This document shows positions 1,387 through 26,334 of a stretch of DNA of 64,000 bases, one piece after another. The DNA is taken from NCBI RefSeq assembly GCF_054482525.1, contig NZ_CM137006.1; one strand, written 5' to 3'. Both the position numbers and the translations under genes were made by a program. Each line of letters begins with the position of its first letter. Within the stretch, counting starts at the first letter, position 1. A model generated the notes under the pieces. It did not search any database and had not been told where the DNA came from. It saw nothing but the letters and a program-made list of their open reading frames with translations.

Positions 1387-3033
1387 ATGTCAAACAAACC
1401 CTTTATCTACCAGGCACCTTTCCCGATGGGGAAAGACAATACCGAATACTATCTACTCACTTCCGATTACGTTAGCGTTGCCGACTTCGACGGTGAAACC
1501 ATCCTGAAAGTGGAACCAGAAGCCCTGACCCTGCTGGCGCAGCAAGCCTTTCACGACGCTTCTTTCATGCTCCGCCCGGCACACCAGAAACAGGTTGCGG
1601 CTATTCTTCACGATCCAGAAGCCAGCGAAAACGACAAGTACGTGGCGCTGCAATTCTTAAGAAACTCCGAAATCGCCGCCAAAGGCGTGCTGCCGACCTG
1701 CCAGGATACCGGCACCGCGATCATCGTCGGTAAAAAAGGCCAGCGCGTGTGGACCGGCGGCGGTGATGAAGAAGCGCTGTCGAAAGGCGTCTATAACACC
1801 TATATCGAAGATAACCTGCGCTATTCACAGAATGCGGCGCTGGACATGTACAAAGAGGTCAACACCGGCACTAACCTGCCTGCGCAAATCGACCTGTACG
1901 CGGTAGATGGCGATGAGTACAAATTCCTTTGCGTTGCGAAAGGCGGCGGCTCTGCCAACAAAACGTATCTCTACCAGGAAACCAAAGCCCTGCTGACTCC
2001 CGGCAAACTGAAAAACTTCCTCGTTGAGAAAATGCGTACCCTCGGTACGGCAGCCTGCCCGCCGTACCATATCGCGTTTGTGATTGGCGGTACGTCTGCG
2101 GAAACCAACCTGAAAACCGTCAAGTTAGCAAGCGCTCACTATTATGATGAACTGCCGACGGAAGGGAATGAACATGGTCAGGCGTTCCGCGATGTCCAGC
2201 TGGAACAGGAACTGCTGGAAGAGGCCCAGAAACTCGGTCTTGGCGCGCAGTTTGGCGGTAAATACTTCGCACACGACATTCGCGTTATCCGTCTGCCACG
2301 TCACGGCGCATCCTGTCCGGTAGGCATGGGCGTCTCCTGCTCCGCTGACCGTAACATTAAAGCGAAAATCAACCGCGAAGGTATCTGGATCGAAAAACTG
2401 GAACACAATCCAGGACAGTACATTCCACAAGAACTGCGTCAGGCCGGTGAAGGCGAAGCGGTGAAGGTCGACCTTAACCGCCCGATGAAAGAGATCCTCG
2501 CCCAGCTTTCGCAATATCCGGTTTCCACTCGTTTGTCGCTCACCGGCACCATTATTGTGGGTCGAGATATTGCACACGCCAAGCTGAAAGAGCTGATTGA
2601 CGCCGGTAAAGAACTGCCGCAGTACATCAAAGATCACCCGATCTACTACGCGGGTCCGGCGAAAACGCCTGCCGGTTATCCATCAGGTTCACTTGGCCCA
2701 ACCACCGCAGGTCGTATGGACTCCTACGTGGATCTGCTGCAATCCCACGGCGGCAGCATGATCATGCTGGCGAAAGGTAACCGCAGTCAGCAGGTTACCG
2801 ACGCGTGTCATAAACACGGCGGCTTCTACCTCGGTAGTATCGGCGGTCCGGCGGCGGTACTGGCGCAGCAGAGCATCAAGCATCTGGAATGCGTCGCTTA
2901 TCCGGAGCTGGGTATGGAAGCTATCTGGAAAATCGAAGTAGAAGATTTCCCGGCGTTTATCCTAGTCGATGACAAAGGCAACGACTTCTTCCAGCAAATC
3001 GTCAACAAACAGTGCGCGAACTGCACTAAGTAA
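1387..3033 (+). CDS. fumB: Fumarate hydratase class I, anaerobic (FumB), 548 aa
   Basis: Full-length ORF; translation recognisable as class I Fe-S fumarase; synteny with dcuB. Confidence 0.93.
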
Positions 3034-3155
3034 CCTCTTCGGCCCAGCGCCTGGCAGCATGCTGCCAGGTGATCCCCCTGGGCCACCTCTTTTGCGATTG
3101 TAATTTCACGCTTGCTGGTGAATAGTCAGTATTTTCCCTGACTTGCGAACTCACC

Positions 3156-3785
3156 ATGACCCGCACACTCAAGCCGTTAATTCTTAACACCGGCGCACTG
3201 GCGCTAACATTAATCCTGATTTATACCGGCATTTCGGCCCATGACAAACTCACCTGGCTGATGGAAGTGACACCGGTGATTATTGTCGTGCCGCTACTGC
3301 TTGCCACCGCTAAACGTTATCCGTTAACGCCGCTGCTCTATACGCTCATTTTCTTTCACGCCATCATCCTGATGGTCGGCGGGCAATACACCTACGCGAA
3401 AGTCCCCGTTGGTTTTGAGGTGCAGGAATGGCTGGGGTTGAGCCGTAATCCGTATGACAAGCTGGGGCATTTTTTCCAGGGGCTGGTGCCTGCACTGGTG
3501 GCACGAGAGATCCTTGTGCGCGGGATGTACGTTCGCGGACGTAAAATGGTGGCGTTTCTGGTCTGCTGCGTGGCGCTGGCGATAAGCGCGATGTATGAAT
3601 TAATCGAGTGGTGGGCGGCGCTGGCAATGGGCCAGGGAGCGGATGATTTTCTCGGCACCCAGGGCGACCAGTGGGACACGCAATCCGATATGTTCTGCGC
3701 GCTGCTTGGCGCATTAACGACGGTGATATTCCTCGCTCGCTTTCATTGCCGCCAGCTACGGCGCTTTGGCTTGATAACCGGATAA
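3156..3785 (+). CDS. yjdF: Inner membrane protein YjdF, 209 aa
   Basis: ORF with multiple hydrophobic segments; position between fumB and melB. Confidence 0.8.
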   Translation: MTRTLKPLILNTGALALTLILIYTGISAHDKLTWLMEVTPVIIVVPLLLATAKRYPLTPLLYTLIFFHAIILMVGGQYTYAKVPVGFEVQEWLGLSRNPYDKLGHFFQGLVPALVAREILVRGMYVRGRKMVAFLVCCVALAISAMYELIEWWAALAMGQGADDFLGTQGDQWDTQSDMFCALLGALTTVIFLARFHCRQLRRFGLITG

Positions 3786-3799
3786 CAACGTGCGCTTTG

Positions 3800-3900
3800 T
3801 TGATGCCGGATGCGGCGTGAATTCCTTATCCGGTCTACAAAATTTGCAAATCCAAAGCATTACATTAAGACGTGGCCTGATAAACATATCGCATCAGGCC
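3800..3900. repeat. REP/BIME palindromic units (gccggatgcggcgtgaattccttatccgg; ggcctgataaacatatcgcatcaggcc)
   Basis: Characteristic REP motifs in yjdF-melB intergenic region. Confidence 0.75.
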
Positions 3901-3923
3901 ATTTTCGTTAGCTATTGTCCACG

Positions 3924-5345
3924 TCAGGCTTTCACATCACTCACTGCACCGACCGGAATATCAGCATGAACAGGCTCGGGCGGTACTTTGCGATATTTAT
4001 CCAGCAGATGGATCTGGATCCTGCGCAGCGTGTCACCATTGAGGCGATAGAAACGGAAGTAGAGAATCAGCGTTACCATGAAAAACAGAGTCGGTAGAGC
4101 AATCATAATAAACTGCATACCTAATAGGGCTTGCGTAGACTGTTCAACATTCGGTACATAGCCAATCATCCCTAACACAACCGCAATGAAAAAAGCCGCA
4201 AAGGCTGAACCGCCCTTCACCACCATAGTCTGCACGGAGTAAGCGATGCTTTCACAGCGTACGTGCAGTTTATATTCACCGTAATCAACGGTATCTGCCA
4301 CCATGATGACCTGTAATACCCAGAAAAGCGCCGTTCCCACATTCAGCAAGATACCCGCAATCACAATGAGGACGACGTTGTGATAGCTCATTAATGCCAT
4401 TAACAGGAGAACACCACAGCTTAACACCGGAAGAATAGATGCTCCGGCCCATAAAATGCGTCGGGATAATGATTTAACTAAGCGTGGGAAGAATACTAAC
4501 GTCACCAGATTAGCAGCTCCCGCATACGACAGATAATAGGGGAACAAATCCGCATCACCGATAACATATGAGAAATAATAGATAGCAAAGCCGGTAATAA
4601 TATTGCTGGCTACATTATAAGCAAGAGCCATACCCAAGAGGCATGAAAGCTGATCGTTTTTATAAATAAGCGCAACGATGGCTTTAAGTGTCAGATGGCT
4701 TCCTTCAGCAGACGGTTGATTGTCTGACGAAAAGACTTCATGCACATTGCGCAGAGTGATGATGGTTGAAACAATAAAAAAGGCGATCAGTACCAGAGTG
4801 AACATCTGAAAGCCAAATCCCCGATCGCCACCGCCGACATAATTAACAAATGGTAGCGTCACACCTGCCGTAACAAAGCCCGCCAGACTGGCAAAAAAAC
4901 GCGGATAAGGAACCAGTTGTTCGCGCTCACGTTTATCGAGCGTTATGGTTGGAACCAGCGACCAGAAGGGAATATCCATAATGGTGTAAGTCATGCCCCA
5001 GAGGATGTAGGTCACGCAAACAAAGACAATCTGAGTAGTACCTTCAAACAGATGCGCACTAAAGAGGAGAAATAAGATTACAGAGTTTGCCAACGTACCG
5101 ATCAGGATCCAGGGTTTGAACTTACCCCATCGCGATCGCGTAGCATTTACAATCCATCCCATAATCGGATCGTTAATAGCATCCCAGATCCTCGCCACCA
5201 GAAACAAAGTACCGACCAAACCCACAGACAGCCCGACGACATCGGTGTAGTAATACATGAGGTACATATACACAATGCCGATCGCAAAATCCTTCCCGAA
5301 CGCTCCAAATCCATAACTGAGTTTTGTAGTCATTGAAATGCTCAT
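3924..5345 (-). CDS. melB: Melibiose:cation symporter MelB, 473 aa
   Basis: Translation begins [20 protein letters not shown]…; start chosen at the second in-frame ATG of the listed ORF to match MelB length. Confidence 0.92.
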
Positions 5346-5447
5346 AGGGTATCGGGTCGCTGTTACCAACGCCCGCCTTCTGTTATTGGTATCGTCAGAG
5401 GTGTGCGCCGGAATAAATCCCCCGGCGCAGTAGCGTTTAGTCGCGTT

Positions 5448-6803
5448 TTAACGGTGCAACCAGCCTGGTAGCCAGTCGCCGTGGGCGGCAATCAGGTCGT
5501 CAACAAGAGCATATATTTCGTCAATGCCCAGCACGGCGGCAGTATGCGGGTCCATCATCGCGGCGTGGTAAACACGGTCGCGATTTTCCGTAAGAATGGC
5601 TTCGGTCAGCAGCGTCTGTACGTTGATGTTGGTTTGCATCAGAGCGGCCAGATGCGAAGGTAGCGTACCGACTTTGGTCGGCTGAATGCCATTAGCATCA
5701 ACCAGACAGGCCACTTCCACACAACATCCTTGTGGCAGGTTATCAATCAATCCATCGTTACGGACGTTGCCGTAAATCACACTCGGCTCGCCAGTCCAGA
5801 TAGCGTTCATGATTGTGCTGGCATATTCCCGTGACGGTTTAATATCAATCCGAGAGGCGTTCTTATACTCCTCCAGCTCTTTATGCCAGTTCGCCAGCTG
5901 CTCGACGCAGCGTTTCGGGTACTCATCCAGCGGTACTTTATAACGCTCAATCAAATCCTCACGACCTGGCTTAATAAACCACGGTGTGTACTCAGCAAAA
6001 TGTTCTGACGATTCCGTGACGAAGTAGCCCAGCTTTTTGAACATTTCATAGCGCACAATATTCTGGCAGCGAGTATTGCCATGAATATTCGGCTTCGGTG
6101 CCTGCCCTGCTTCATAAGCCGCCAGCAGTTCCGGGTAGAGATTCACGTAACTGCCGTCGGCGGTTTTGCGCTCCAGTTCCAGGTAAAACGCCATATGGTT
6201 GATACCTGCGCAACGGTAACGCAGCGTAGCCGGGTCGATATTGAGGTCACGCGCCAGCTCTTCCGCCGTTCCCTGCACCGAATGGCACAGCCCTACCTGT
6301 TTGATATGCGGATAGCGGGCATACATCGCCCAGGTATTCATCGCCATTGGGTTAACGTAGTTGAGCATAGTGGCATCGGGGCAAACTTCCGTCATGTCCT
6401 CGCAAATTTGCCACAGGTGCGGAATGGTACGTAGCGCGCGCATAATACCGCCCGGCCCCAACGTATCGGCAATGGTTTGTTCCAGACCATGCCGCTTACA
6501 GACCTCGAAATCAGTCACCGTGCAAGGTTCATAACCGCCAATCTGAAATGCCACCACGACAAAATCGGCATCCTGTAAGGCTTCTTTCTGTTGGATGTGG
6601 CAGGTGATTTTGCCGCTGGCCCCTGCTGAATCCATCAGCTTGCGCACCACAATATGCGACTCTTCCAGGCGGGTGGGATCAATGTCCATCAGGGCAATAT
6701 GCGCCGTTTTCAGCGCCTCGCGATGGAACACATCACCAAGAATATTTTTAACGAAAATCGTCGAACCAGCGCCGATAAATGTAATTTTGGGTGCAGACAT
6801 CAT
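5448..6803 (-). CDS. melA: Alpha-galactosidase MelA (NAD/Mn-dependent family 4 glycosidase), 451 aa
   Basis: Full ORF; N-terminal Rossmann motif (KITFIGAGST); upstream of melB in same orientation. Confidence 0.93.
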   Translation of the reverse strand: MMSAPKITFIGAGSTIFVKNILGDVFHREALKTAHIALMDIDPTRLEESHIVVRKLMDSAGASGKITCHIQQKEALQDADFVVVAFQIGGYEPCTVTDFEVCKRHGLEQTIADTLGPGGIMRALRTIPHLWQICEDMTEVCPDATMLNYVNPMAMNTWAMYARYPHIKQVGLCHSVQGTAEELARDLNIDPATLRYRCAGINHMAFYLELERKTADGSYVNLYPELLAAYEAGQAPKPNIHGNTRCQNIVRYEMFKKLGYFVTESSEHFAEYTPWFIKPGREDLIERYKVPLDEYPKRCVEQLANWHKELEEYKNASRIDIKPSREYASTIMNAIWTGEPSVIYGNVRNDGLIDNLPQGCCVEVACLVDANGIQPTKVGTLPSHLAALMQTNINVQTLLTEAILTENRDRVYHAAMMDPHTAAVLGIDEIYALVDDLIAAHGDWLPGWLHR

Positions 6804-6880
6804 GCAGATCTCCTGGCTTGCTTGAATAACTTCATCATGGCAGGCGAATCTGCAGAAAACCTCCGGCTTCCAGGTTGAGC

Positions 6881-6936
6881 ATTCCCATAAACTCAGATCC
6901 TACGTGAAGCATCAATAAATCTGAGTTTATGGGAAT
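6881..6936. promoter_or_regulatory. melAB promoter operator region: perfect inverted repeat attcccataaactcagat / atctgagtttatgggaat separated by 20 bp (probable MelR sites)
   Basis: Palindrome read from sequence, located in melA-melR divergent intergenic region; assignment to MelR by established knowledge of melAB regulation. Confidence 0.55.
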
Positions 6937-7663
6937 AAATTACCTGAAAAGCAGAGTTTTCGGCCTCAGAATGCTCGGATGGTCCCCTCGCCTCTCTGGG
7001 AAGAGAGTGAAAACCGTGCTCCCACTCGCAGTCATCTTCCTGCACTCCTGCCATAATTCTGATATTCCAGGAAAGAGAGCCATCCATGAATACAGATACG
7101 TTTATGTGCAGCAGCGACGAAAAACAGACCCGCAGCCCGCTGTCGCTGTATTCGGAATACCAGCGGATGGAGATTGAGTTTCGCGCACCGCATATCATGC
7201 CCACCAGCCACTGGCATGGTCAGGTCGAAGTGAATGTGCCTTTCGATGGCGATGTGGAATACCTGATCAACAATGAAAAAGTGAGTATCAATCAGGGACA
7301 TATCACGCTGTTCTGGGCCTGTACACCGCACCAACTAACAGATACCGGAACCTGTCAGAGCATGGCGATTTTTAATCTGCCGATGCATCTGTTTCTCTCC
7401 TGGCCGCTGGATAAAGACCTGATTAACCACGTCACTCACGGCATGGTGATCAAATCACTGGCGACACAGCAACTTAGCCCGTTTGAAGTGCGCCGCTGGC
7501 AGCAGGAATTGAACAGTCCGAACGAGCAAATTCGCCAGCTCGCCATTGATGAAATTGGCCTGATGCTCAAGCGATTTAGCCTCTCTGGCTGGGAACCGAT
7601 TCTGGTCAATAAAACCTCGCGCACACACAAAAACAGCGTCTCGCGCCATGCGCAATTTTATGT

Positions 7664-7676
7664 CAGCCAGATGCTG
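7664..7676. repeat. Left copy of 13 bp target-site duplication (cagccagatgctg) of IS4
   Basis: Identical 13-mer found at 9103..9115 directly abutting the other IS4 end. Confidence 0.85.
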
Positions 7677-9102
7677 TAATGCCAGTCAGTTAAGCAACTG
7701 ACTGGCTCTTTTTCGGGGCTGTGGGGTATTTCCAGGGCCTCTCCTTTACCACTCTCGGGAAGGCCCTTTCCCTTCTTGTCGGTAATTTCACAAGTTGTCC
7801 CATACTTGCAAGATCGCGCATCAGCTCCGGTATACGTCCCGGTGAAGCGCCCTGCAATGTCATCAGCATTCTCATCACCATTCCGCATGATTCTGAGAAA
7901 CTCAGTTGATTCGGCCAGTAACCTTTCAGATGTTCCGCCATTTTAATCATCTGATATCTCACCAGATTATAAGCCAGTAAGACACCCCACAGCTCTTGCT
8001 CCACAAGCTCCGGTTTTTTACTTCTCAGCGTCAGCCTGCTCAGTTGCATCGTCTGTTTTATCTCCCTGTATCCCAGTTCGATTTCCCAGCGATGACTGTA
8101 CAGATCCGCCATTTCTCCTCCGGGGAAGCGCATGGCGTCCGTCATCGACGTCAGCAGATGGCAGACTTTTCCTTTGCGCGTCACGGTCAGCAGGCGGGCT
8201 GTCACTTCATTTCCCAGTCCCGGCCACTTTTTTCGTGCCTGCGGGCTGGTTTTCAGCTTCACCAGATGATCGCCTTTACCCAGTTTTCTGATCTCTTCAT
8301 ATTGCGCTCCCTTTCTGAGAGGTATCATCCAGTGGCGGTGTTCTCCCGCCAGGCTCCAGGCATTTAACAGTCCCAGTGAGTAATAACCTTTATCCATTAA
8401 CGTCAGAGTGTTATCGCCGGTTTGTTCTATAAGTTGCTCAGCAAGCTCATTTTCGCTGTTCTTCATCGTGCCGAAGGCTGCAGCCGTCAGCAGATGGCTG
8501 GTCAGTTCCATCTGGCAGACCATTTTGACCTGCGGGTAGAGCGCCGGGTTCCCGGCATGTGTCTGGCGGGGGAAGGCTGCATCGTTCTCTAGTGTATCCG
8601 GTGTGCGCCAGAACACACCATCGATGGCCAGCAGGGTCAGGCCGCACCAGTGCGGATGCGGCGTGGCGTTATGCCAGAGCTGCGCTGTTTTCGTGAACAC
8701 GCGGCGGACAGCCTCACTTCCCAGGCGCTGGCGGGCCTGAATAACGGCACTGGGGGCAACGAAGGGGCGATTGCCCGGCAGCATGATGTCCAGGCGATTC
8801 ACAATCTGGTGAAGAGGTTCTTTACGCTCAAGCGCCATGCCAACAATACACCAGACCATCATTTCGAGGGGAAGACGGCGCTTGCGTAGCGTTACAGTAC
8901 CTGATTCGGCAAGGCAACGAGAGATGAGTTCGGGGTCGAGGTAATCCCCCAGAGAAGTCAGTGGGTTACGCAGAGAATCGTAACGGGATACCAGATCAAG
9001 AGCCTGTCCAATGTGCATAAAAAAATCCGGAAACAAGTGAGCGTTTCCGGATTCTTACACAGCCACTGGATCGGTCAACTGATCCTTAACTGATCGGCAT
9101 TA
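7677..9102 (-). mobile_element. IS4 insertion sequence, complete (1426 bp) with imperfect terminal inverted repeats (taatgcc…/…ggcatta)
   Basis: Length and terminal repeats; internal transposase ORF; flanked by 13 bp direct repeat cagccagatgctg. Confidence 0.9.
7690..9018 (-). CDS. insG: IS4 transposase (InsG-like, DDE family), about 442 aa
   Basis: ORF inside IS4; translation matches IS4 transposase; start placed at MHIGQALD… (listed ORF begins 6 codons earlier). Confidence 0.85.
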
Positions 9103-9115
9103 CAGCCAGATGCTG
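9103..9115. repeat. Right copy of 13 bp target-site duplication of IS4
   Basis: Identical to 7664..7676. Confidence 0.85.
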
Positions 9116-9631
9116 GGCTTTATTGCCGAAAACTATGATCAGGCGCTGACCATCAACGATGTGGCTGAGCACGTCAAACTTAACGCCAACTATGCAATGG
9201 GGATATTCCAGCGGGTCATGCAATTGACGATGAAACAGTACATTACCGCGATGCGCATCAACCACGTTCGCGCGTTACTGAGCGATACCGATAAAAGTAT
9301 TCTCGATATTGCCCTGACGGCAGGCTTTCGTTCGAGTAGCCGTTTTTACAGCACGTTCGGCAAATATGTCGGCATGTCACCGCAACAATACCGCAAACTT
9401 AGCCAACAGCGCCGCCAGACGTTTCCCGGCTAAAGACGATATCAGTATCAGCCAAAAAAATAGTTTAGCCGTCGATAATAAGCAGTGAAAATAATTTAAA
9501 ATAATCACATAACATATTGTTTATAAAAACAAATATTTCAAAAATGTTTGTTTTTCACGCGCTTTACAGCCCGAAAAGGCCGGAAGATACTTGCCCGCAA
9601 CGAAGATTCCTTCATAACCGGGTAAGCAATG

Positions 9632-11899
9632 ATGAAAGTATTAATTGTTGAAAGCGAGTTTCTCCATCAAGACACCTGGGTCGGTAACGCCGTTGAGCGT
9701 CTGGCTGATGCTTTAAGCCAGCAAAATGTTACCGTGATTAAATCCACCTCCTTTGATGATGGTTTTGCCATTCTCTCTTCAAACGAAGCCATTGACTGCC
9801 TGATGTTCAGCTATCAAATGGAACATCCGGACGAACATCAAAACGTCAGACAATTGATCGGTAAGCTTCATGAGCGCCAACAAAACGTGCCGGTCTTCCT
9901 GTTGGGCGATCGGGAAAAAGCCCTCGCCGCAATGGACCGGGATCTGCTGGAGCTTGTCGATGAATTCGCCTGGATTCTGGAAGATACCGCCGACTTTATC
10001 GCCGGACGCGCCGTTGCCGCGATGACCCGCTACCGCCAGCAACTGTTGCCGCCACTGTTCAGCGCGCTGATGAAATATAGCGACATCCATGAATATTCCT
10101 GGGCAGCGCCAGGCCACCAGGGTGGCGTTGGTTTTACCAAAACACCCGCCGGACGTTTCTACCATGACTACTATGGTGAAAACCTGTTCCGCACCGACAT
10201 GGGCATCGAACGAACTTCCCTCGGTTCTTTGCTTGACCATACTGGCGCATTTGGCGAAAGCGAAAAATATGCCGCACGCGTATTTGGTGCCGATCGCTCC
10301 TGGTCGGTAGTCGTCGGTACTTCCGGCTCTAACCGCACCATCATGCAGGCTTGCATGACCGATAACGATGTCGTGGTCGTTGACCGTAACTGCCATAAAT
10401 CCATCGAACAAGGCTTGATGCTGACAGGCGCGAAACCGGTCTACATGGTGCCAAGCCGCAACCGCTACGGCATTATCGGGCCAATCTATCCGCAGGAAAT
10501 GCAACCTGAAACCTTGCAGAAGAAAATCAGTGAAAGCCCGCTGACTAAAGACAAAGCCGGGCAAAAACCGTCTTACTGCGTAGTGACCAACTGTACCTAT
10601 GACGGCGTGTGTTATAACGCTAAAGAAGCGCAGGATCTGCTGGAAAAAACCTCCGATCGGCTGCACTTTGACGAAGCCTGGTACGGCTATGCACGTTTCA
10701 ACCCGATCTATACCGATCACTATGCCATGCGCGGCGAACCTGGCGATCACAACGGTCCTACCGTTTTCGCCACCCACTCCACCCACAAACTGCTGAATGC
10801 GCTGTCACAGGCCTCTTATATTCATGTACGTGAAGGTCGTGGGGCGATTAACTTCTCTCGCTTCAACCAGGCCTACATGATGCATGCCACCACCTCCCCG
10901 CTGTATGCCATCTGCGCATCTAACGACGTGGCGGTGTCGATGATGGACGGCAACAGCGGCCTGTCACTGACCCAGGAAGTGATCGACGAAGCGGTTGATT
11001 TCCGTCAGGCGATGGCGCGGCTGTATAAAGAGTTCACCGCTGACGGTAGCTGGTTCTTCAAACCGTGGAACAAAGAAGTCGTCACCGACCCACAAACCGG
11101 CAAAACCTATGACTTTGCTGACGCACCAACCAAACTGCTGACCACCGTTCAGGACTGCTGGGTAATGCATCCGGGCGAAAGCTGGCACGGCTTCAAAGAT
11201 ATTCCGGATAACTGGAGTATGCTCGACCCGATTAAAGTCAGCATCCTTGCTCCGGGAATGGGTGAAGATGGTGAACTGGAAGAAACCGGTGTTCCAGCGG
11301 CGCTAGTCACTGCCTGGCTTGGTCGCCACGGCATTGTGCCTACCCGCACCACTGACTTCCAAATTATGTTCCTGTTCTCTATGGGCGTAACCCGTGGGAA
11401 ATGGGGGACTCTGGTTAACACCCTTTGCTCCTTCAAACGCCACTATGACGCCAACACACCGCTGGCGCAGGTGATGCCGGAACTTGTTGAACAATATCCT
11501 GACACTTACGCGAACATGGGGATTCACGATCTGGGTGACACCATGTTTGCCTGGCTGAAAGAAAACAACCCTGGCGCACGGTTGAACGAAGCCTATTCCG
11601 GCCTGCCGGTGGCGGAAATCACCCCACGTGAAGCGTACAACGCGATTGTCGACAACAATGTCGAACTGGTATCCATTGAAAATCTGCCAGGACGCATCGC
11701 GGCAAACTCAGTTATCCCGTATCCGCCAGGAATCCCGATGCTGCTGTCTGGTGAAAACTTCGGCGATAAAAACAGTCCGCAAGTAAGTTATTTACGCTCG
11801 CTGCAATCCTGGGACCATCATTTCCCTGGATTTGAACACGAAACAGAAGGGACAGAAATTATTGACGGTATTTACCACGTTATGTGTGTGAAAGCGTAA
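9632..11899 (+). CDS. adiA: Biodegradative (acid-inducible) arginine decarboxylase AdiA, PLP-dependent, 755 aa
   Basis: Translation MKVLIVESEF…; Orn/Lys/Arg decarboxylase architecture; followed by adiY and adiC. Confidence 0.93.
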   Translation: MKVLIVESEFLHQDTWVGNAVERLADALSQQNVTVIKSTSFDDGFAILSSNEAIDCLMFSYQMEHPDEHQNVRQLIGKLHERQQNVPVFLLGDREKALAAMDRDLLELVDEFAWILEDTADFIAGRAVAAMTRYRQQLLPPLFSALMKYSDIHEYSWAAPGHQGGVGFTKTPAGRFYHDYYGENLFRTDMGIERTSLGSLLDHTGAFGESEKYAARVFGADRSWSVVVGTSGSNRTIMQACMTDNDVVVVDRNCHKSIEQGLMLTGAKPVYMVPSRNRYGIIGPIYPQEMQPETLQKKISESPLTKDKAGQKPSYCVVTNCTYDGVCYNAKEAQDLLEKTSDRLHFDEAWYGYARFNPIYTDHYAMRGEPGDHNGPTVFATHSTHKLLNALSQASYIHVREGRGAINFSRFNQAYMMHATTSPLYAICASNDVAVSMMDGNSGLSLTQEVIDEAVDFRQAMARLYKEFTADGSWFFKPWNKEVVTDPQTGKTYDFADAPTKLLTTVQDCWVMHPGESWHGFKDIPDNWSMLDPIKVSILAPGMGEDGELEETGVPAALVTAWLGRHGIVPTRTTDFQIMFLFSMGVTRGKWGTLVNTLCSFKRHYDANTPLAQVMPELVEQYPDTYANMGIHDLGDTMFAWLKENNPGARLNEAYSGLPVAEITPREAYNAIVDNNVELVSIENLPGRIAANSVIPYPPGIPMLLSGENFGDKNSPQVSYLRSLQSWDHHFPGFEHETEGTEIIDGIYHVMCVKA

Positions 11900-12016
11900 C
11901 CACTATTCCGCTGAAGGCGTAATTGTTAAATAACATTACGCCGCCTGGCTTGAGGCCTTTTAAGTATGGCAACGTTTTCATAAAAATTGCTGCAAACAAA
12001 AAATGTCATGCTTTTT

Positions 12017-12043
12017 GCGCGGTCCCACCCCGCGCTTTTTTTT
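12017..12043 (+). terminator. Rho-independent terminator: gcgcggtcccaccccgcgc stem followed by T8
   Basis: Hairpin plus T-run read from sequence downstream of adiA. Confidence 0.5.
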
Positions 12044-12234
12044 GCCTGTTATTTATCCTTTTTTTAGCCTGTAAAAAAATATGTACATGAGAAATTACTA
12101 TAAAAATTTGTAATATTAGTAAAACTCGTTATTTTTATGCATGTTTATATTCATCATACAATTATATAACCATTTCCCGGTATCGCTTCGCTTTAGCGAG
12201 AACTGGTCTTTTATTCGCACTCAGGAGTACATGT

Positions 12235-12996
12235 ATGAGGATTTGCAGCGACCAACCTTGTATTGTTTTATTGACTGAAAAAGATGTCTGGATAAGGGTG
12301 AATGGGAAAGAACCTATTAGCCTTAAAGCTAACCATATGGCGTTATTAAATTGTGAAAATAATATTATCGACGTCTCCTCTCTTAATAACACTTTGGTTG
12401 CTCATATTAGTCACGACATCATCAAAGATTACCTCCGGTTTCTGAATAAAGATCTCTCGCAAATACCAGTATGGCAACGTAGCGCTACGCCCATCCTCAC
12501 TCTGCCATGCCTGACGCCAGACGTCTTTCGCGTTGCCGCGCAACACAGCATGATGCCCGCTGAAACTGAGTCAGAAAAGGAACGAACACGTGCATTATTA
12601 TTCACTGTGCTATCCCGTTTTCTCGACAGTAAAAAATTCCTTTCATTAATGATGTATATGTTACGTAATTGTGTAAGCGACAGCGTTTATCAAATTATTG
12701 AAAGCGATATTCACAAAGACTGGAATCTTAGTATGGTAGCCAGTTGTTTATGTCTTAGCCCAAGTCTGTTAAAGAAAAAGCTGAAAAGCGAAAACACCAG
12801 TTATAGCCAAATAATCACCACCTGCCGCATGCGTTATGCCGTAAATGAATTAATGATGGACGGTAAAAATATCTCTCAGGTTTCACAGTCCTGCGGCTAC
12901 AACAGTACGTCGTACTTTATTTCTGTCTTTAAAGACTTCTACGGTATGACGCCGCTGCATTATGTTAGTCAGCACAGAGAACGCACTGTCGCCTGA
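12235..12996 (+). CDS. adiY: AraC-family regulator AdiY, 253 aa
   Basis: ORF between adiA and adiC; C-terminal AraC HTH region; AT-rich coding sequence. Confidence 0.88.
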   Translation: MRICSDQPCIVLLTEKDVWIRVNGKEPISLKANHMALLNCENNIIDVSSLNNTLVAHISHDIIKDYLRFLNKDLSQIPVWQRSATPILTLPCLTPDVFRVAAQHSMMPAETESEKERTRALLFTVLSRFLDSKKFLSLMMYMLRNCVSDSVYQIIESDIHKDWNLSMVASCLCLSPSLLKKKLKSENTSYSQIITTCRMRYAVNELMMDGKNISQVSQSCGYNSTSYFISVFKDFYGMTPLHYVSQHRERTVA

Positions 12997-13132
12997 TTTT
13001 TAACCTTAACGAAGAGCTATATTAATAACGGCATCAGCGATAACCCGGTCGATAATAATTCAACTATCGAATGCAGGCGTATGATATGACGTAATTTATT
13101 GTCACGAAGCTCGCCTTCGCAGGAGTTTAATT

Positions 13133-14470
13133 ATGTCTTCGGATGCTGATGCTCACAAAGTGGGCTTAATCCCCGTCACCCTGATGGTGTCGGGGAATAT
13201 TATGGGGTCAGGTGTTTATCTGTTACCTGCAAACCTGGCCTCCACTGGCGGGATTGCCATTTATGGATGGTTGGTGACGATTATCGGTGCGCTGGGGCTC
13301 TCGATGGTATACGCCAAAATGTCGTTCCTCGACCCAAGTCCTGGTGGTTCTTACGCTTACGCCCGCCGCTGCTTTGGCCCGTTTCTCGGTTATCAAACCA
13401 ACGTCCTCTACTGGCTGGCCTGCTGGATCGGCAATATCGCCATGGTGGTCATTGGCGTAGGTTATTTAAGTTACTTCTTCCCGATTCTGAAAGATCCATT
13501 GGTATTAACCATCACCTGCGTCGTGGTGCTGTGGATCTTCGTCCTGCTGAATATTGTCGGTCCGAAAATGATCACCCGCGTGCAGGCCGTTGCCACCGTG
13601 CTGGCGCTGATCCCCATCGTCGGGATTGCCGTATTTGGCTGGTTCTGGTTCCGTGGTGAAACCTATATGGCGGCATGGAACGTCAGCGGCCTGGGCACCT
13701 TCGGCGCGATTCAAAGTACCCTTAACGTTACGCTGTGGTCGTTCATCGGTGTGGAAAGTGCCTCCGTTGCCGCAGGTGTGGTGAAAAACCCGAAACGCAA
13801 CGTCCCTATCGCCACCATAGGTGGGGTATTGATTGCCGCCGTTTGCTATGTGCTCTCCACCACCGCGATTATGGGGATGATCCCTAATGCCGCACTGCGC
13901 GTTTCTGCCTCGCCATTCGGTGATGCCGCACGGATGGCGTTGGGTGACACCGCCGGGGCCATTGTTTCCTTCTGCGCAGCTGCGGGTTGCTTAGGTTCAC
14001 TGGGCGGCTGGACGTTGCTGGCGGGGCAAACGGCGAAAGCCGCTGCCGATGACGGACTGTTCCCACCGATTTTTGCCCGTGTAAATAAAGCGGGTACGCC
14101 AGTGGCAGGGCTGATTATCGTCGGTATTTTGATGACCATCTTCCAGCTCAGCAGCATTTCACCAAACGCGACCAAAGAGTTCGGTCTGGTTTCTTCCGTC
14201 TCGGTCATCTTTACACTGGTGCCATATCTTTACACCTGTGCGGCGTTACTGCTGCTCGGCCACGGTCACTTTGGTAAAGCACGCCCGGCATATCTGGCAG
14301 TTACTACCATTGCCTTCCTCTACTGCATCTGGGCCGTGGTGGGGTCCGGGGCGAAAGAGGTTATGTGGTCATTTGTCACCCTGATGGTCATCACCGCCAT
14401 GTATGCGCTGAATTACAACCGGCTGCATAAAAACCCGTATCCCTTAGATGCACCAATAAGCAAAGATTAA
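13133..14470 (+). CDS. adiC: Arginine:agmatine antiporter AdiC (APC family), 445 aa
   Basis: 12-TM hydrophobic ORF; synteny with adiA/adiY. Confidence 0.92.
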
Positions 14471-14573
14471 TTCCCCTTAATCCAGCAAACATAAAAGCCA
14501 ACCTTAAGAACTTAAGGTTGGCTTAATTTTGCTTTGCGAGCATATGCGCACTTTGTTCGATGGAAACACCGTG

Positions 14574-16217
14574 ATGTTGAAGCGCCTACTAAAAAGACCC
14601 TCTTTGAATTTACTCGCCTGGCTATTGTTGGCCGCTTTTTATATCTCTATCTGCCTGAATATTGCCTTTTTTAAACAGGTGTTGCAGGCGCTGCCGCTGG
14701 ACTCGCTGCATAACGTACTGGTTTTCTTGTCGATGCCGGTCGTCGCTTTCAGCGTGATTAATATTGTCCTGACACTAAGCTCTTTCTTATGGCTTAATCG
14801 ACCGCTGGCCTGCCTGTTTATTCTGGTTGGCGCGGCTGCACAATATTTCATAATGACTTACGGCATCGTCATCGACCGCTCGATGATTGCCAATATTATT
14901 GATACCACTCCGGCAGAAAGTTATGCGCTGATGACACCGCAAATGTTATTAACGCTGGGATTCAGCGGCGTGCTTGCTGCGCTGATTGCCTGCTGGATTA
15001 AAATCAAACCTGCCACCTCGCGTCTGCGCAGTGTTCTTTTCCGTGGTGCCAATATTCTGGTTTCTGTACTGCTGATTTTGCTGGTCGCCGCACTGTTTTA
15101 TAAAGACTACGCCTCGTTGTTTCGCAATAACAAAGAGCTGGTGAAGTCCTTAAGCCCCTCTAACAGCATTGTTGCCAGCTGGTCATGGTACTCCCATCAG
15201 CGACTGGCAAATCTGCCGCTGGTGCGAATTGGAGAAGACGCGCACCGCAACCCATTAATGCAGAACGAGACACGTAAAAATTTGACCATCCTGATTGTCG
15301 GCGAAACCTCGCGGGCGGAGAACTTCTCCCTCAACGGCTACCCGCGTGAAACTAACCCGCGGCTGGCGAAAGATAACGTGGTCTATTTCCCTAATACCGC
15401 ATCTTGCGGCACGGCAACGGCAGTTTCAGTACCGTGCATGTTCTCGGATATGCCGCGTGAGCATTACAAAGAAGAGTTGGCACAGCACCAGGAAGGCGTG
15501 CTGGATATCATTCAGCGAGCTGGCATCAACGTACTGTGGAATGACAACGATGGCGGCTGTAAAGGTGCCTGCGACCGCGTGCCTCACCAGAACGTCACCG
15601 CGCTGAATCTGCCTGGTCAGTGCATCAACGGCGAATGCTATGACGAAGTGCTGTTTCACGGGCTGGAAGAGTACATCAATAACCTGCAGGGTGATGGCGT
15701 GATTGTCTTACACACCATCGGCAGCCACGGTCCGACCTATTACAACCGCTATCCGCCGCAGTTCAGGAAATTTACCCCAACCTGCGACACTAACGAGATC
15801 CAGACCTGTACCAAAGAGCAACTGGTGAACACTTACGACAACACGCTGGTTTACGTCGACTATATTGTTGATAAAGCGATTAATCTGCTGAAAGAACATC
15901 AGGATAAATTCACCACCAGCCTGGTTTATCTTTCTGACCACGGTGAATCGTTAGGTGAAAATGGCATCTATCTGCACGGTCTGCCTTATGCCATCGCCCC
16001 GGATAGCCAAAAACAGGTGCCGATGCTGCTGTGGCTGTCGGAGGATTATCAAAAACGGTATCAGGTTGACCAGAACTGCCTGCAAAAACAGGCGCAAACG
16101 CAACACTATTCACAAGACAATTTATTCTCCACGCTATTGGGATTAACTGGCGTTGAGACGAAGTATTACCAGGCTGCGGATGATATTCTGCAAACTTGCA
16201 GGAGAGTGAGTGAATGA
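14574..16217 (+). CDS. eptA: Lipid A phosphoethanolamine transferase EptA (PmrC), 547 aa
   Basis: Translation from [14 protein letters not shown]…; N-terminal TM domain plus sulfatase-like periplasmic domain; stop overlaps basR start (ATGA). Confidence 0.9.
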
Positions 16218-16882
16218 AAATTCTGATTGTTGAAGACGATACGCTGTTATTGCAGGGATTGATTCTGGCGGCGCAAACCGAAGGCTACGCATGCGATGGC
16301 GTGACAACCGCGCGGATGGCGGAACAAAGCCTTGAGGCCGGTCATTACAGCCTGGTAGTACTGGATTTAGGGTTACCCGATGAAGATGGACTGCATTTTC
16401 TCGCCCGTATCCGGCAGAAAAAATATACCCTGCCGGTACTGATCCTCACCGCTCGCGATACGCTGACCGACAAAATCGCCGGGCTGGATGTCGGTGCCGA
16501 TGACTATCTGGTGAAGCCTTTTGCGCTGGAAGAGTTACACGCCCGTATCCGCGCCCTGCTACGACGCCATAATAATCAGGGTGAAAGTGAGCTGATTGTT
16601 GGCAATCTGACGCTAAATATGGGTCGCCGTCAGGTCTGGATGGGCGGTGAAGAGTTGATTCTGACGCCTAAAGAATATGCTCTGCTGTCACGGTTAATGC
16701 TCAAAGCAGGCAGTCCGGTGCATCGGGAAATTCTCTACAACGACATCTATAACTGGGACAATGAACCCTCGACCAACACCCTGGAAGTGCATATCCACAA
16801 TCTGCGCGACAAAGTGGGCAAAGCCCGTATCCGCACCGTGCGTGGTTTTGGCTATATGCTGGTCGCAAATGAGGAAAACTAA
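16214..16882 (+). CDS. basR: Two-component response regulator BasR (PmrA), OmpR family, 222 aa
   Basis: MKILIVEDD… receiver domain and winged-helix C-terminus; operon with eptA/basS. Confidence 0.93.
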
Positions 16883-16891
16883 TTGAATCTG

Positions 16892-17983
16892 ATGCGTTTT
16901 CTGCGCCGACCAATATCGCTGCGCCAACGGCTGATATTGACCATCGGGGCCATTTTGTTGGTGTTTGAGCTGATCAGCGTCTTCTGGCTATGGCATGAAA
17001 GTACCGAGCAGATTCAGCTGTTTGAGCAGGCGCTACGCGACAATCGCAACAACGATCGCCACATCATGCGTGAGATCCGCGAGGCGGTCGCCAGCCTGAT
17101 CGTCCCCGGCGTCTTTATGGTCAGCCTGACGCTATTTATCTGCTATCAGGCGGTACGCCGCATCACCCGCCCGCTGGCGGAGCTGCAAAAAGAGCTGGAA
17201 GCGCGCACCGCCGACAATTTAACGCCTATTGCCATTCACAGTGCCACCCTCGAAATCGAAGCGGTGGTTTCGGCGTTAAACGATCTGGTCAGTCGCCTGA
17301 CCAACACGCTGGATAACGAAAGGTTGTTTACCGCTGACGTCGCGCATGAACTGCGAACGCCACTGGCGGGGGTGCGTTTGCATCTGGAACTGCTGGCGAA
17401 AACGCATCACATTGATGTAGCACCGTTAGTGGCACGGCTTGATCAGATGATGGAGAGTGTCTCCCAGCTACTGCAACTGGCGCGTGCCGGACAGTCATTT
17501 TCTTCCGGGAATTATCAACATGTAAAACTGCTGGAAGATGTCATTCTCCACTCGTATGACGAACTCAGTACCATGCTCGACCAGCGACAGCAAAACCTGC
17601 TATTGCCAGAGAGCGCCGCCGACATCACCGTTCAGGGTGATGCAACCCTGCTGCGGATGTTATTGCGAAACCTGGTAGAAAACGCCCATCGTTACAGCCC
17701 GCAAGGCAGCAACATTATGATTAAGCTGCAAGAAGATGGCGGAGCGGTCATGGCCGTTGAAGATGAAGGACCGGGTATTGATGAGAGTAAATGCGGGGAG
17801 TTGAGTAAAGCGTTTGTACGTATGGACAGCCGTTATGGCGGGATTGGTCTGGGGTTAAGTATTGTCAGCCGCATTACACAGTTGCATCACGGGCAGTTTT
17901 TCCTGCAAAACCGGCAAGAGACTTCTGGCACGCGGGCCTGGGTACGGCTGAAGAAAGATCAGTACGTGGCAAACCAGATATAA
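16892..17983 (+). CDS. basS: Sensor histidine kinase BasS (PmrB), 363 aa
   Basis: H-box ADVAHELRTPL and ATPase motifs; start taken at ATG 16892 (the listed ORF begins at an upstream TTG). Confidence 0.9.
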   Translation: MRFLRRPISLRQRLILTIGAILLVFELISVFWLWHESTEQIQLFEQALRDNRNNDRHIMREIREAVASLIVPGVFMVSLTLFICYQAVRRITRPLAELQKELEARTADNLTPIAIHSATLEIEAVVSALNDLVSRLTNTLDNERLFTADVAHELRTPLAGVRLHLELLAKTHHIDVAPLVARLDQMMESVSQLLQLARAGQSFSSGNYQHVKLLEDVILHSYDELSTMLDQRQQNLLLPESAADITVQGDATLLRMLLRNLVENAHRYSPQGSNIMIKLQEDGGAVMAVEDEGPGIDESKCGELSKAFVRMDSRYGGIGLGLSIVSRITQLHHGQFFLQNRQETSGTRAWVRLKKDQYVANQI

Positions 17984-18048
17984 AGAAAGCTGCTGACCAC
18001 CAGCACGCTGAACACGGTAGTTAAACTTTCATAAACACGGTTTTTCAT
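17959..18048 (-). CDS. pmrR: Small membrane peptide PmrR, 29 aa (MKNRVYESLTTVFSVLVVSSFLYIWFATY)
   Basis: Short ORF on minus strand with RBS ggagag upstream; I recognise the peptide as PmrR; its 3-prime end overlaps the basS 3-prime end on the opposite strand. Confidence 0.65.
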   Translation of the reverse strand: MKNRVYESLTTVFSVLVVSSFLYIWFATY

Positions 18049-18118
18049 TGCACTCTCCTCCGTTAACCTGGAGGAGAGTATGCGCGTCAGAGATTAAGTG
18101 AACCTTAAGAGTTCAATT

Positions 18119-18147
18119 GGCCTGATAAGACAGCGTCACATCAGGCC
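18119..18147. repeat. REP element (ggcctgataagacagcgtcacatcaggcc)
   Basis: Canonical REP palindrome between pmrR and proP. Confidence 0.75.
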
Positions 18148-18159
18148 ATCCGTTTCAGC

Positions 18160-19662
18160 TTATTCATCAATTCGCGGATGTTGCTGCACCAGGCGGGTAC
18201 GTTTCGCCTGCAAATCGGCAATCTCGTGGTCAATATCATCGATTTTCTGCTCGATATTATCGTAATGCTCGACGAGAATTTCCTTCGCTTCCTGTATATC
18301 TGACGCCGCCGGTGTCGCACCTTTCAACGGACGATTCGCCGTCTCTTTCATGGTTACGCCGGTGATTAAACCAACCACCGCCACTACCATCAGGTAATAG
18401 GCAGGCATCATCAGATTCTGCGAGCTTTCGACCAGCCAGGCCGCCAGTGTTGGCGTCAGACCGGCAACCAGCACCGAAATATTAAATGCCGCCGCCAGCG
18501 CGCTGTAACGGATATGCGTCGGGAACATCGCTGGCAAGGTAGAAGCCATAACGCCCGTAAAGCAGTTAAGGATCACCGCCAGCATCAGTAACCCGGCAAA
18601 AATCAGGCCGATGACGTTACTGTTAATCAGAATAAACGCCGGGATCGCCAACACAAACAGTGCAACACTACCAAGTAGCACAAACGGACGACGGCCAAAA
18701 CGGTCACTCAGCAAGCCCATCACCGGCTGGACAAACAGCATACCGATCATAATGGCGATAATAATCAGCACCCCGTGGTCTTCGGAGTAATGCAGGTTAT
18801 GCGACAAATAACTCGGCATATAGGTCAGCAACATGTAGTAAGTCACGTTGGTGGCAATTACCAGACCAATACATGTCAACAGGCTGCGCCAGTATTTAGT
18901 GGCAATCTCTTTAAACGAGACTTTCGGGCCATCCTGCAAACCTTCGCGGTCGCCCTGTTCCAGTTTATCAACATGCTGCTGGAACGCCGGAGTCTCTTCC
19001 AGCGCATGGCGCAGGTAAAGCCCGATAATCCCTAACGGCAGAGCAATAAAGAACGGAATACGCCAGCCCCAGTCGAGGAAGTTCGCTTCGCCGACAATGG
19101 TCGAAATTAACACCACCACGCCCGCACCCAGCACAAACCCGGCAATAGAACCGAAGTCCAGCCAGCTGCCCATAAATCCACGTTTACGGTCAGGGGAGTA
19201 TTCCGCAACAAATATCGACGCCCCGGTATATTCACCGCCGACCGAGAAACCTTGTGCCATCTTACAGATCAACAGCAGAATCGGTGCCCAAATACCAATC
19301 GTATCGTAGGACGGTATTAAGCCAATACAGAACGTACTGATCGACATAATCACAATAGTGATAGCGAGGATCTTCTGGCGACCATATTTATCGCCCAACA
19401 TACCAAAGAAGAGTCCACCAAGCGGTCGAATCAGAAAGGGAACGGAGAAAGTGGCAAGTGCAGCAACCATCTGCACGCTGGGGTCAGCCCCCGGGAAAAA
19501 AACTTTACCTAATGCGTAAGCAACAAAACCATAAACACCAAAATCAAACCATTCCATTGCATTACCCAGTGATGCTGCGGTAATGGCTTTACGCAGTTTA
19601 CCGTCATCAATAATAGTGACATCACGAAGGGTAATTGGTTTTACTTTTTTCCTTTTCAGCAT
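18160..19662 (-). CDS. proP: Proline/glycine betaine:H+ symporter ProP (MFS) with C-terminal coiled coil, 500 aa
   Basis: Translation from MLKRKKVKPITLRDVTIIDDGKLRK…; MFS topology; start chosen at internal ATG. Confidence 0.92.
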   Translation of the reverse strand: MLKRKKVKPITLRDVTIIDDGKLRKAITAASLGNAMEWFDFGVYGFVAYALGKVFFPGADPSVQMVAALATFSVPFLIRPLGGLFFGMLGDKYGRQKILAITIVIMSISTFCIGLIPSYDTIGIWAPILLLICKMAQGFSVGGEYTGASIFVAEYSPDRKRGFMGSWLDFGSIAGFVLGAGVVVLISTIVGEANFLDWGWRIPFFIALPLGIIGLYLRHALEETPAFQQHVDKLEQGDREGLQDGPKVSFKEIATKYWRSLLTCIGLVIATNVTYYMLLTYMPSYLSHNLHYSEDHGVLIIIAIMIGMLFVQPVMGLLSDRFGRRPFVLLGSVALFVLAIPAFILINSNVIGLIFAGLLMLAVILNCFTGVMASTLPAMFPTHIRYSALAAAFNISVLVAGLTPTLAAWLVESSQNLMMPAYYLMVVAVVGLITGVTMKETANRPLKGATPAASDIQEAKEILVEHYDNIEQKIDDIDHEIADLQAKRTRLVQQHPRIDE

Positions 19663-19925
19663 AGCTTTCCTCGCAGAGTTGGCCCATTTCCGCAAACGCC
19701 AGAAAAATCAGCGCGACGGCCGCAAAAGGGGAGCGGGAATTGCAGGATGCAATCTCTGTAACAAGCGTAGCGGGTTTGCTTACACCCTCCGGTTAAGGAA
19801 TGTACAATCAAACCAGTTGACGCCTGAATTGGGCAGTTAATGACCTTTTTACCCTACCAGTGTTTAAATTTGTGATCAACTTCACACATGCATTTCGTTT
19901 AGGACTCATTGGTGTAACTGATTAT

Positions 19926-20804
19926 TTACACCAAATTTACAGAGAAGATTTCCTCGACCATTGCCCCCGCCAGACGCTGCGCTGAACAGAGTCGTGGCAT
20001 CCCCAGTGCGACAGTTCGCCAGCGTTGGGTCACTGACCAGCAAACGGGTTGTTTATCTGCCGTGGACCACTTTCCCAGCCAACTTAAAAAATCAGCATGA
20101 TCCCCGCCCGTCGAAACGGTCGAAGAGGCAAACCACTGATGGTAATAGTGACGCGTGGTCGGGGCCGCATTGATACTCTCTGCCAGATGTTGTGTCGCTT
20201 TCACGCGCAAATCACCCAGCAACAACGCCACCGCTTGCGGGCTTCCCAGACGGCAGGCATCGCCAAATCCCCCCCAGCGCAACTCCTCCAGAACGATAAA
20301 ACAGCGCCCAGGCAACGACCAGGCGTTATACGCCCCAGCACGCCAGCGGGTAAAAATTTGCTCGCTCTGTTCACCCGCCTGCACCAGTAGGCCTCGTTGC
20401 GTTAACGCCTTTTCCTTCCAGCGACAACGGGCTGAAAACCACTCATACAAGGCGGCAATTTGCTGGGGGAGCTCAGGGAAAGCAGAGTGCTGGCGGTGAT
20501 CCATTTTTTGCAGCAGCGCCAGATGTTGCGCGATCTGCGTCAGCGCCAGATGACCGGGATCCAGCATCGAAGCCAGTTTTTCCACCAATGTCAGACGCAG
20601 GCTAAGCGGCGCATTTAACATCCCGCCGTTCGTCCATGCCTGAAGCTGCACACGCGCAAGAAGTTCCTGCATCAGTCGTTCACGAAACTGCTGCTGATGG
20701 GGTTGTGGATGGCGGACATCATCGCCCTGCGCCAGATCCACTAAAAAGCGCGGATGAACCGACTCCAGCACGCGACCGGGGCCGTCCAGTAACGTCTTGG
20801 TCAA
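19926..20804 (-). CDS. yjcZ: Uncharacterised protein YjcZ, 292 aa
   Basis: ORF immediately downstream of crfC, 4-bp overlap with crfC stop; matches K-12 yjcZ by position and length. Confidence 0.8.
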   Translation of the reverse strand: MTKTLLDGPGRVLESVHPRFLVDLAQGDDVRHPQPHQQQFRERLMQELLARVQLQAWTNGGMLNAPLSLRLTLVEKLASMLDPGHLALTQIAQHLALLQKMDHRQHSAFPELPQQIAALYEWFSARCRWKEKALTQRGLLVQAGEQSEQIFTRWRAGAYNAWSLPGRCFIVLEELRWGGFGDACRLGSPQAVALLLGDLRVKATQHLAESINAAPTTRHYYHQWFASSTVSTGGDHADFLSWLGKWSTADKQPVCWSVTQRWRTVALGMPRLCSAQRLAGAMVEEIFSVNLV

Positions 20805-23029: not shown

Positions 23030-23352
23030 AGAAAATTCTTCCTTAAAGCAAATTTTGTTACTTTTATTTAGCCAGATTGTTTTTGAGTTCTGTTTTCGGC
23101 TTTTATAATTACTGCAAGAAATAATTTTATATTTAGCGTGTTGTTTTTTATTAGAATAAATAACGTCTTCCGATACGTTTAAAACGTCAGAAAGATAAAA
23201 ATATCATTTGAATTAAAAAAAGAACAAGTAGAGCATTAACCTTATCTTAAATAATAAATGGAGGCAAAAAGATTATTTTCTTTTTGCGTTTCCTTTCAAA
23301 TGAAAACGATCGTCGTCTAAAATCAGCAGTACCCCCGACAAACTCAGGGATT

Positions 23353-23362
23353 TTGTGTATAA
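23353..23362 (+). promoter_or_regulatory. Candidate extended -10 element (tgtgtataat) upstream of phnA
   Basis: TGnTATAAT match read from sequence in AT-rich intergenic region; no -35 verified. Confidence 0.3.
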
Positions 23363-23766: not shown

Positions 23767-23782
23767 TTGTATTGTGATCGGT

Positions 23783-26331: not shown

Positions 26332-26334
26332 TGT

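Follow-up and report, generated by a model that had tools for sequence, protein, structure and literature searches.

The melR gene of Escherichia coli is interrupted by a complete copy of IS4 in the window, which is the whole stretch of 64,000 nucleotides analyzed here. The lesion is very probably the result of a single, recent, and simple IS4 transposition into an intact melR, and this degree of confidence applies to the best explanation as a whole, including insertion at a preferred target and the consequences proposed below for melibiose use. The element is a known one, the insertion and the kind of target are typical, the gene that was hit encodes a non-essential regulator, and there is no new mechanism. 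The new points are only the specific allele and the finding that melR codons 193–197 are a recurrent IS4 target.

The IS4 element and its insertion into melR

The inserted DNA is 1426 bp long (positions 7677..9102) and lies on the minus strand, with its transposase-distal end (IRR) adjoining the 5′ part of melR. It is bounded by imperfect 18-bp terminal inverted repeats that begin with TAATGCC, namely TAATGCCAGTCAGTTAAG at the transposase-distal end (7677..7694) and the reverse complement of TAATGCCGATCAGTTAAG at the transposase-proximal end (9085..9102), and the two ends match at 16 of 18 positions. Sequence comparison revealed the 13-bp repeat CAGCCAGATGCTG on either side of the element, as a left copy of the target-site duplication at 7664..7676 and a right copy at 9103..9115. 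The repeat is perfect, a script found no further extension of it, and the probability of a chance 13-bp match exactly at both IS4 boundaries is approximately 4^-13. Members of the IS4 subgroup have the end signature -AATR and a target duplication of 10–13 bp (PMC2266710); the ends found in the window are consistent with this signature, and the 13-bp duplication is within the range of the subgroup. The minus-strand ORF inside 7677..9102 is given as 442/448 codons in the ORF list, and its translation corresponds to an intact IS4 transposase gene of 442 codons plus stop (7690..9018, minus strand). The exact protein matches the Pfam families PF13006 (Nterm_IS4) and PF01609 (DDE_Tnp_1). The copy in the window has all the defining features of IS4 that can be tested by sequence, including the length, the ends, the duplication, and the single-ORF DDE transposase.

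Compared to the IS4 of K-12 (insG locus, MG1655 4502090..4503515), the copy in the window shares the length of 1426 bp, the 18-bp ends, the 442-aa transposase, and identity at 1421/1426 positions, and the target duplications are 12–13 bp in both cases. The two copies differ in their chromosomal site and at 5/1426 positions, including one that places Leu at transposase residue 143; Pro is found at this residue in K-12 and four other copies. Copies with 100% identity to that of the window are present in five complete E. coli genomes, which have 3 to 7 IS4 places each and in which the identical copies are annotated as "IS4-like element IS4 family transposase." In general, about half of the complete E. 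coli genomes (2686 of 5426) contain IS4; the median copy number is one and the maximum is 32. The Leu143 variant is probably mobile, judging from the presence of exactly the same protein at several other chromosomal sites. A private inactivating mutation of the transposase was considered and rejected, as Pro143Leu is shared with identical copies, which occupy several sites and are present in five complete genomes. No repeats of at least 200 bp were found in the window, which indicates that there is no second IS4 copy within the 64 kb.

Two hairpins were predicted near the ends of the element. First, a scan combined with folding identified a terminator-like hairpin with an 11-bp stem on the plus strand (7681..7706; −18.7 kcal/mol, z = −3.0), which is located 4 nt inside IS4 and is followed by UCUUUUU (hairpin and U-run, 7681..7715). 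Its orientation is such that it would stop transcripts coming from melR. Second, a hairpin followed by U7 is located on the minus strand directly upstream of the transposase ATG (9019..9055; −23.5 kcal/mol, z = −6.2) and, by its orientation, may stop transcription that comes into IS4 from the side of adiA. A promoter-like site for the transposase, TTGACC-16-AAGAAT with a TG (9078..9051, minus strand), overlaps the 5′ arm of this second hairpin.

The disrupted gene is unambiguously melR. Its 5′ part (7086..7679, plus strand) comprises codons 1–197, identical to the melR of E. coli SCU-102, and a TAA stop codon that is provided by the first three bases of IS4. The 3′ remnant (9110..9433, plus strand) comprises codons 196–302, an ORF of 107 codons whose start, Met196, falls within the duplicated 13-mer, and the target duplication corresponds to melR nucleotides 579–591 (codons 193–197). 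In silico removal of IS4 and one copy of the repeat yields 909 nt, equal to 302 codons plus stop, with 0 mismatches to the SCU-102 gene; the rebuilt protein is identical to the annotated SCU-102 MelR and differs from K-12 MelR by one substitution (S67N). Pfam matches in the rebuilt protein are HTH_AraC at residues 200–241 and 254–291 and HTH_18 at residues 214–291, all of which belong to the DNA-binding half. The only match in the 5′ part is a weak one to Cupin_2 (residues 38–88), with no HTH, and this part encodes the N-terminal regulatory domain and linker without the DNA-binding domain. The insertion follows codon 197 and precedes the first AraC helix-turn-helix by three residues; both AraC motifs are in the 3′ remnant, and a contiguous MelR frame joining the two domains is absent. 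Residues N222 and R273, which have been reported as DNA contacts (PMC2377442), also fall in the downstream remnant.

These results bear out the structural part of a preliminary description of this DNA, whose coordinates all proved correct and which had recognized a complete 1426-bp IS4 with terminal inverted repeats, a flanking 13-bp direct repeat, and the separation of the AraC HTH domain from the rest of the activator. It had placed the insertion at "about codon 195," which is close, as the duplication covers codons 193–197. The excision that it suggested, of 7677..9102 plus one 13-mer, indeed restores a continuous 302-codon melR. Its view of a simple transposition into a previously intact gene agrees with the 13-bp duplication and the perfect match of the rebuilt gene to that of SCU-102, and its statement that melR is intact in K-12 was confirmed.

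Age and distribution of melR::IS4 alleles

The closest complete genome is that of E. coli SCU-102, in which melR is intact and annotated. Positions 1664..7676 of the window are 100% identical to this genome, and no mismatch occurs over the interval from fumB to the end of the 5′ part of melR; when IS4 is left out, the window shows 12 SNPs relative to SCU-102 in 62 kb of flanks, all of them in the remaining ~54 kb. For the right flank (9103..30000), the identity is 100.0% with each of three complete genomes (SCU-102, 19KM1776, and PCN033). Because the empty site is identical in SCU-102, the IS4 insertion is younger than the very shallow split between the two strains. Compared to SCU-102, IS4 is the sole lesion in the mel locus. 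The melB (3924..5345) and melA (5448..6803) genes on the minus strand are untouched and identical to their SCU-102 counterparts, which are annotated as intact, and the order of melB-melA on the minus strand and melR-adiA-adiY-adiC on the plus strand is the same in K-12 and SCU-102. The region upstream of adiA (9434..9628) is kept, and there should be no effect on adiA.

The preliminary description had proposed searching the junctions for lineages that share the insertion. Among complete RefSeq E. coli genomes, melR::IS4 was found in 0/5426 in the window's orientation and, with a synthetic junction query, in 0/5426 in the opposite orientation; because none of these genomes carries the insertion, the allele is young and rare. 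Exact junction strings gave 0 matches in the contigs of a one-genome-per-species collection, and the exact junction valid for both orientations gave 0 matches in JGI metagenome contigs. Exact-protein look-up of the truncated 197-residue product in draft genomes and read-archive assemblies was more informative and revealed further alleles.

The S67 allele present in the window was found to run into IS4 in two of these contigs, L002 (Logan SRR29937339) and L004 (ENA ERZ27274283). Both are interrupted at the same melR nucleotide as the window and carry IS4 in the opposite orientation, since melR is joined to the other end of the element. Their flanks differ from that of the window at 34/2229 and ~50/1040 positions, respectively, and also differ from each other. 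The K-12-type N67 allele of the 197-residue product was represented in 107 blocks and on 63 contigs, under the NCBI names "MelR, partial [Escherichia coli]" or "MelR [Shigella boydii]." At ten N67 places (L036 to L045), the junction was in all ten cases ...CAGCCAGATGCTG/TAATGCC, continuing with the transposase-proximal end of IS4 in two and with the distal end in eight. These ten places represent two flank haplotypes that are ~41 SNPs per 3.6 kb apart, one of which holds both orientations. Both haplotypes belong to B2-type E. coli lineages that carry a deletion of melB, and melR is intact in complete genomes whose flanks are 100% identical to them.

IS4 is thus found at the identical melR nucleotide in five flank backgrounds, including that of the window, and in both orientations. 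If each combination of flank haplotype and orientation is counted separately, these sequences would represent as many as six insertions of independent origin at a single melR nucleotide; in the lineages other than the window, only the left junction is covered, as the contigs stop inside IS4, and an identical 13-bp duplication is assumed there. The "partial MelR" proteins of draft genomes are therefore IS4 junctions and not random truncations. That the site is a recurrent IS4 target, occupied in both orientations in other lineages, had been missed in the preliminary description.

Four wild-type contigs (L001, L003, L005, and L006), which end 1–2 nt past codon 197, were also considered as possible mixed populations of interrupted and intact melR. 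This reading was rejected as unproven, because the exact-product look-up itself selects contigs ending at codon 197 and because a branch in the assembly graph would end at +0 and not at +1 or +2. Literature searches for "IS4" together with "melR" and for "MelR173" returned no paper, and within the scope of the former search melR is unreported as an IS4 target. A mutation-accumulation study reported eight new IS4 insertions.

Target preference and selection

The position of the insertion appears to be set by the target preference of IS4 and not by the domain structure of MelR. Thirty empty IS4 sites, of which 27 are non-redundant, were reconstructed from IS4 copies in other genomes. They follow a pattern of an A-run, 3–4 nt, a duplicated core of 11–14 bp, 3–4 nt, and a T-run, in which the core has C as its first and G as its last base and is frequently a palindrome. 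Many of the reconstructed sites are palindromes that resemble bidirectional terminators, and at the sites in eno/TPM, adhE, and bamD the orientation of IS4 is opposite from one genome to another. The melR site, ataaagcc CAGCATCTGGCTG acataaaatt, with ATAAAGCC as its target arm, combines a good arm on one side with a core, CAGC...GCTG, that is palindromic. In addition, the IS4 site at yicI, which is occupied in many ST131-like genomes, is strikingly similar to it (CAGCCAGGTCTG).

When a half-site weight matrix was built from the 27 other IS4 sites, the melR site ranked fourth among 61,784 positions of the IS-free window. Its score of 14.4 bits is below the median of 21.9 bits for the training sites, which were scored with the matrix derived from themselves, and the site is without the T-run arm on one side. 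The low score and the missing T-run arm suggest that a simple target model is incomplete as an account of frequent insertion into melR.

The galT gene has a single IS4 site that is used in both orientations, as is known from the literature of the 1970s–80s. The melR site resembles classical IS4 site specificity (the galT site; conserved target arms, as in De Palmenaer et al.) in several respects: one nucleotide is reused, both orientations occur, and a duplication of 11–14 bp is accompanied by an A-run arm. It differs from the classical sites in having one good arm only. The melR alleles provide a natural example of narrow target choice by IS4, with one nucleotide used in several lineages and in both orientations.

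Selection has to be weighed as a different source of the recurrence, in that loss of MelR could be advantageous in the gut and the IS4 insertions could be merely the alleles that become fixed. A ΔmelR strain had a ~1.5-fold advantage over its parent in germ-free mice, and point mutations in melR appeared in the course of colonization (PMC10878103). Furthermore, other melR lesions are present in public assemblies, including 1-bp deletions (L019 and L020) and a 2-bp duplication (L021). However, selection would scatter insertions over the 900 bp of the gene, while all the IS4 junctions found share one nucleotide, and the melR site fits the IS4 target model. In the B2-type lineages, moreover, there is little to gain from an insertion into melR because melB is already deleted. 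Selection as the source of the recurrence is considered unlikely, although it retains more weight than the other alternatives discussed below. Target preference is the most economical explanation, and selection for the loss of melR is probably a minor contributor, given that the ΔmelR strain had a gain of only ~1.5-fold in mice.

Another member of the IS4 family adjoins melR in E. coli DSM 103246 (NZ_CP019944). In this strain, IS10 / ISVsa5 is located 5 bp away from the IS4 position, with the junction ...CTCAG/TGCTGGGCT, and the same 107-codon remnant is left. IS10 prefers GCTNAGC-like targets. The case of DSM 103246 differs from that of the window in the element involved and in the far side of IS10, which is unrelated DNA, indicating that the locus has been rearranged. 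One could go further and propose that melR codons 193–197 form a hot spot at which IS4-family elements naturally insert, as IS4 occurs there in both orientations and IS10 lies 5 bp away, and that in various E. coli phylogroups this hot spot recurrently switches melibiose use off and, through precise excision between the 13-bp repeats, on again. We regard this proposal as quite improbable.

Predicted consequences for melibiose use

Both MelR and CRP are required for melAB expression, and site R mediates the repression of the melR promoter by MelR itself (PMC2377442). By transposing into an intact melR at a preferred target and duplicating 13 bp, IS4 would have split the gene after codon 197 and set the regulatory domain and linker apart from the DNA-binding domain with its two HTH motifs. 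No DNA-binding MelR would then be made, the MelR- and CRP-dependent melAB promoter would be silent, and melibiose would not be used, while the melR promoter would lose its autorepression. A 197-residue N-terminal fragment could still be produced from a transcript ending at the hairpin just inside IS4, and the 3′ HTH remnant would be silent. The strain is predicted to be melibiose-negative, because melAB depends on an activator whose DNA-binding domain has been cut off; this prediction combines the sequence with the K-12 literature. From the need of melAB for MelR, the preliminary description had arrived at the same phenotype or, as the other outcome, at melAB expression from an alternative promoter. 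This need is documented (PMC2377442), and a melibiose-negative phenotype is a reasonable prediction.

The preliminary description had further suggested that read-out from IS4 could express the 107-codon HTH fragment. Such read-out or read-through would yield a DNA-binding-only fragment that occupies the MelR sites of the mel promoters. In favor of this idea, Met196 provides an in-frame ATG in the remnant, neither HTH motif has been lost, and, according to the title of Michan et al. (1995), the C-terminal DNA-binding part of MelR was obtained in vitro as a stable fragment. However, the transposase gene is antiparallel to the remnant and points away from it, and transcripts from melR would meet a hairpin with a U-run at the end where they enter IS4. 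On the plus strand between 8600 and 9125, no sigma-70-like site reached 8/12 matches. The Shine-Dalgarno pairing energy for the ATG at 9110 is −1.7 kcal/mol, compared to −3.8 to −7.4 kcal/mol for melR, adiA, adiY, and melA, and this ATG is sequestered in a local hairpin of −16.8 kcal/mol formed between the IS4 end and melR. With the transposase antiparallel, no promoter-like site upstream, a weak Shine-Dalgarno sequence, and a buried ATG, the suggestion was not supported. A DNA-binding-only fragment is very unlikely to be made, and the 3′ remnant is most likely not expressed.

It is slightly less probable still that melAB is expressed independently of MelR, by transposase transcription that leaves IS4 toward the 5′ part of melR and continues in the direction of melA and melB, which would make the strain weakly melibiose-positive. 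The transposase gene and melAB are indeed on the same (minus) strand, and the minus-strand hairpin at the IS4 end is without a following U-run. However, such a transcript would have to cross ~590 nt of untranslated antisense melR and a 280-nt regulatory region, which are likely targets of Rho. The transposase promoter is a 9/12 match only, its Shine-Dalgarno sequence is weak, and several other lineages carry IS4 in the opposite orientation. Given ~870 nt of untranslated RNA and a weak promoter, read-out toward melAB carries little weight. Finally, misassembly is often due to IS elements, but an IS4 copy misplaced in melR by the assembler is hardly credible in view of the perfect 13-bp duplication, whose length is typical for IS4, the exactness of both junctions, and the presence of the same left junction in independent assemblies.

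The predicted outcome, a melibiose-negative strain, is comparable to that of engineered melR nulls (e.g., WAM1321 ΔmelR) and of AraC-family activators without the C-terminal domain, as the DNA-binding domain is lost in each case. Compared to the engineered nulls, the lesion in the window exhibits two distinct features. First, it is a natural IS insertion, and both halves of the gene are still present. Second, it is reversible in principle by precise excision between the 13-bp repeats. The source strain would thus be melibiose-negative through a single and potentially revertible lesion with melAB intact, which could be of use in biotyping and in interpreting metabolic models.

Elsewhere in the window, the sole other structural difference from SCU-102 is a copy of IS1 at 36227..36994 with a 9-bp duplication.

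Target preference of IS4 and the melR site

IS4 sites in other genomes (loci L056 to L075, L011, L026, L028, L031 and L033) are mostly palindromes that resemble bidirectional terminators and lie between convergent genes. Most of them are laid out as an A-run, a GC stem, a loop, the second stem and a T-run, the duplicated segment comprising the inner stem plus the loop, and in different genomes the same sites have been reused in opposite orientations. At melR, the duplicated 13-mer varies between alleles in its first base, window position 7664 (melR nt 579), which is C in the window and in every IS4-bearing allele seen, with T found instead in K-12 and in some contigs with wild-type melR. As almost all IS4 duplications have C as their first base, IS4 may insert less readily into the T allele.

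Four contigs with wild-type melR (L001, L003, L005 and L006), which come from different samples, end 1-2 nt past codon 197. These shared ends are probably a selection effect of the look-up for the exact 197-residue product by which the contigs were retrieved; alternatively, they may be linked to mixed populations of wild-type and IS4-bearing cells.

Other lesions in melR

In one scaffold (L021; ENA ERZ28629751 scaffold_40, locus positions 2999..3000), a 2-bp AT duplication (CCAGATATGCTG) at the exact centre of the IS4 target causes a frameshift in melR. In E. coli DSM 103246 (L014 and L023; NZ_CP019944, 4923178..4924722), an IS10-type element, ISVsa5, ends with ...CTCAG directly before TGCTGGGCT, 5 bp away from the IS4 site, and is adjoined by the same 107-codon melR remnant as in the window. 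The DNA on the far side of the element is unrelated, which indicates that the locus has been rearranged. Another copy of ISVsa5 is found in this genome between adiY and adiC.

B2-type E. coli lineages (the melR::IS4 contigs L036 to L045, together with L020 and L021) have lost melB and kept melA and melR, with yjdF adjoining melA at a junction at about locus position 1363. The occurrence of IS4 insertions or small frameshifts in melR in this melB-deleted background suggests that an operon already out of function is decaying neutrally.

IS activity in the source strain

A 768-bp IS1 flanked by a 9-bp duplication (TGTGCTCAG) lies between yjcS and an rpiB-like gene (window 36227..36994). It is absent from this site in SCU-102, the closest complete genome, and is the second strain-specific insertion besides IS4. 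Two new IS insertions compared to only 12 SNPs over 62 kb suggest that IS activity in the strain has been recent.

Hairpins at the IS4 ends

Both ends of IS4 carry a hairpin followed by a U-run, at the transposase end on the minus strand (window 9019..9078) and at the other end on the plus strand (window 7681..7715), each in an orientation that fits stopping transcription from outside. Since the hairpin at the transposase end shares part of its 5' arm with a promoter-like -10, read-in transcripts would contain the terminator and the element's own transcript would lack it, an insulation logic that would be similar to that of IS10 and IS50.
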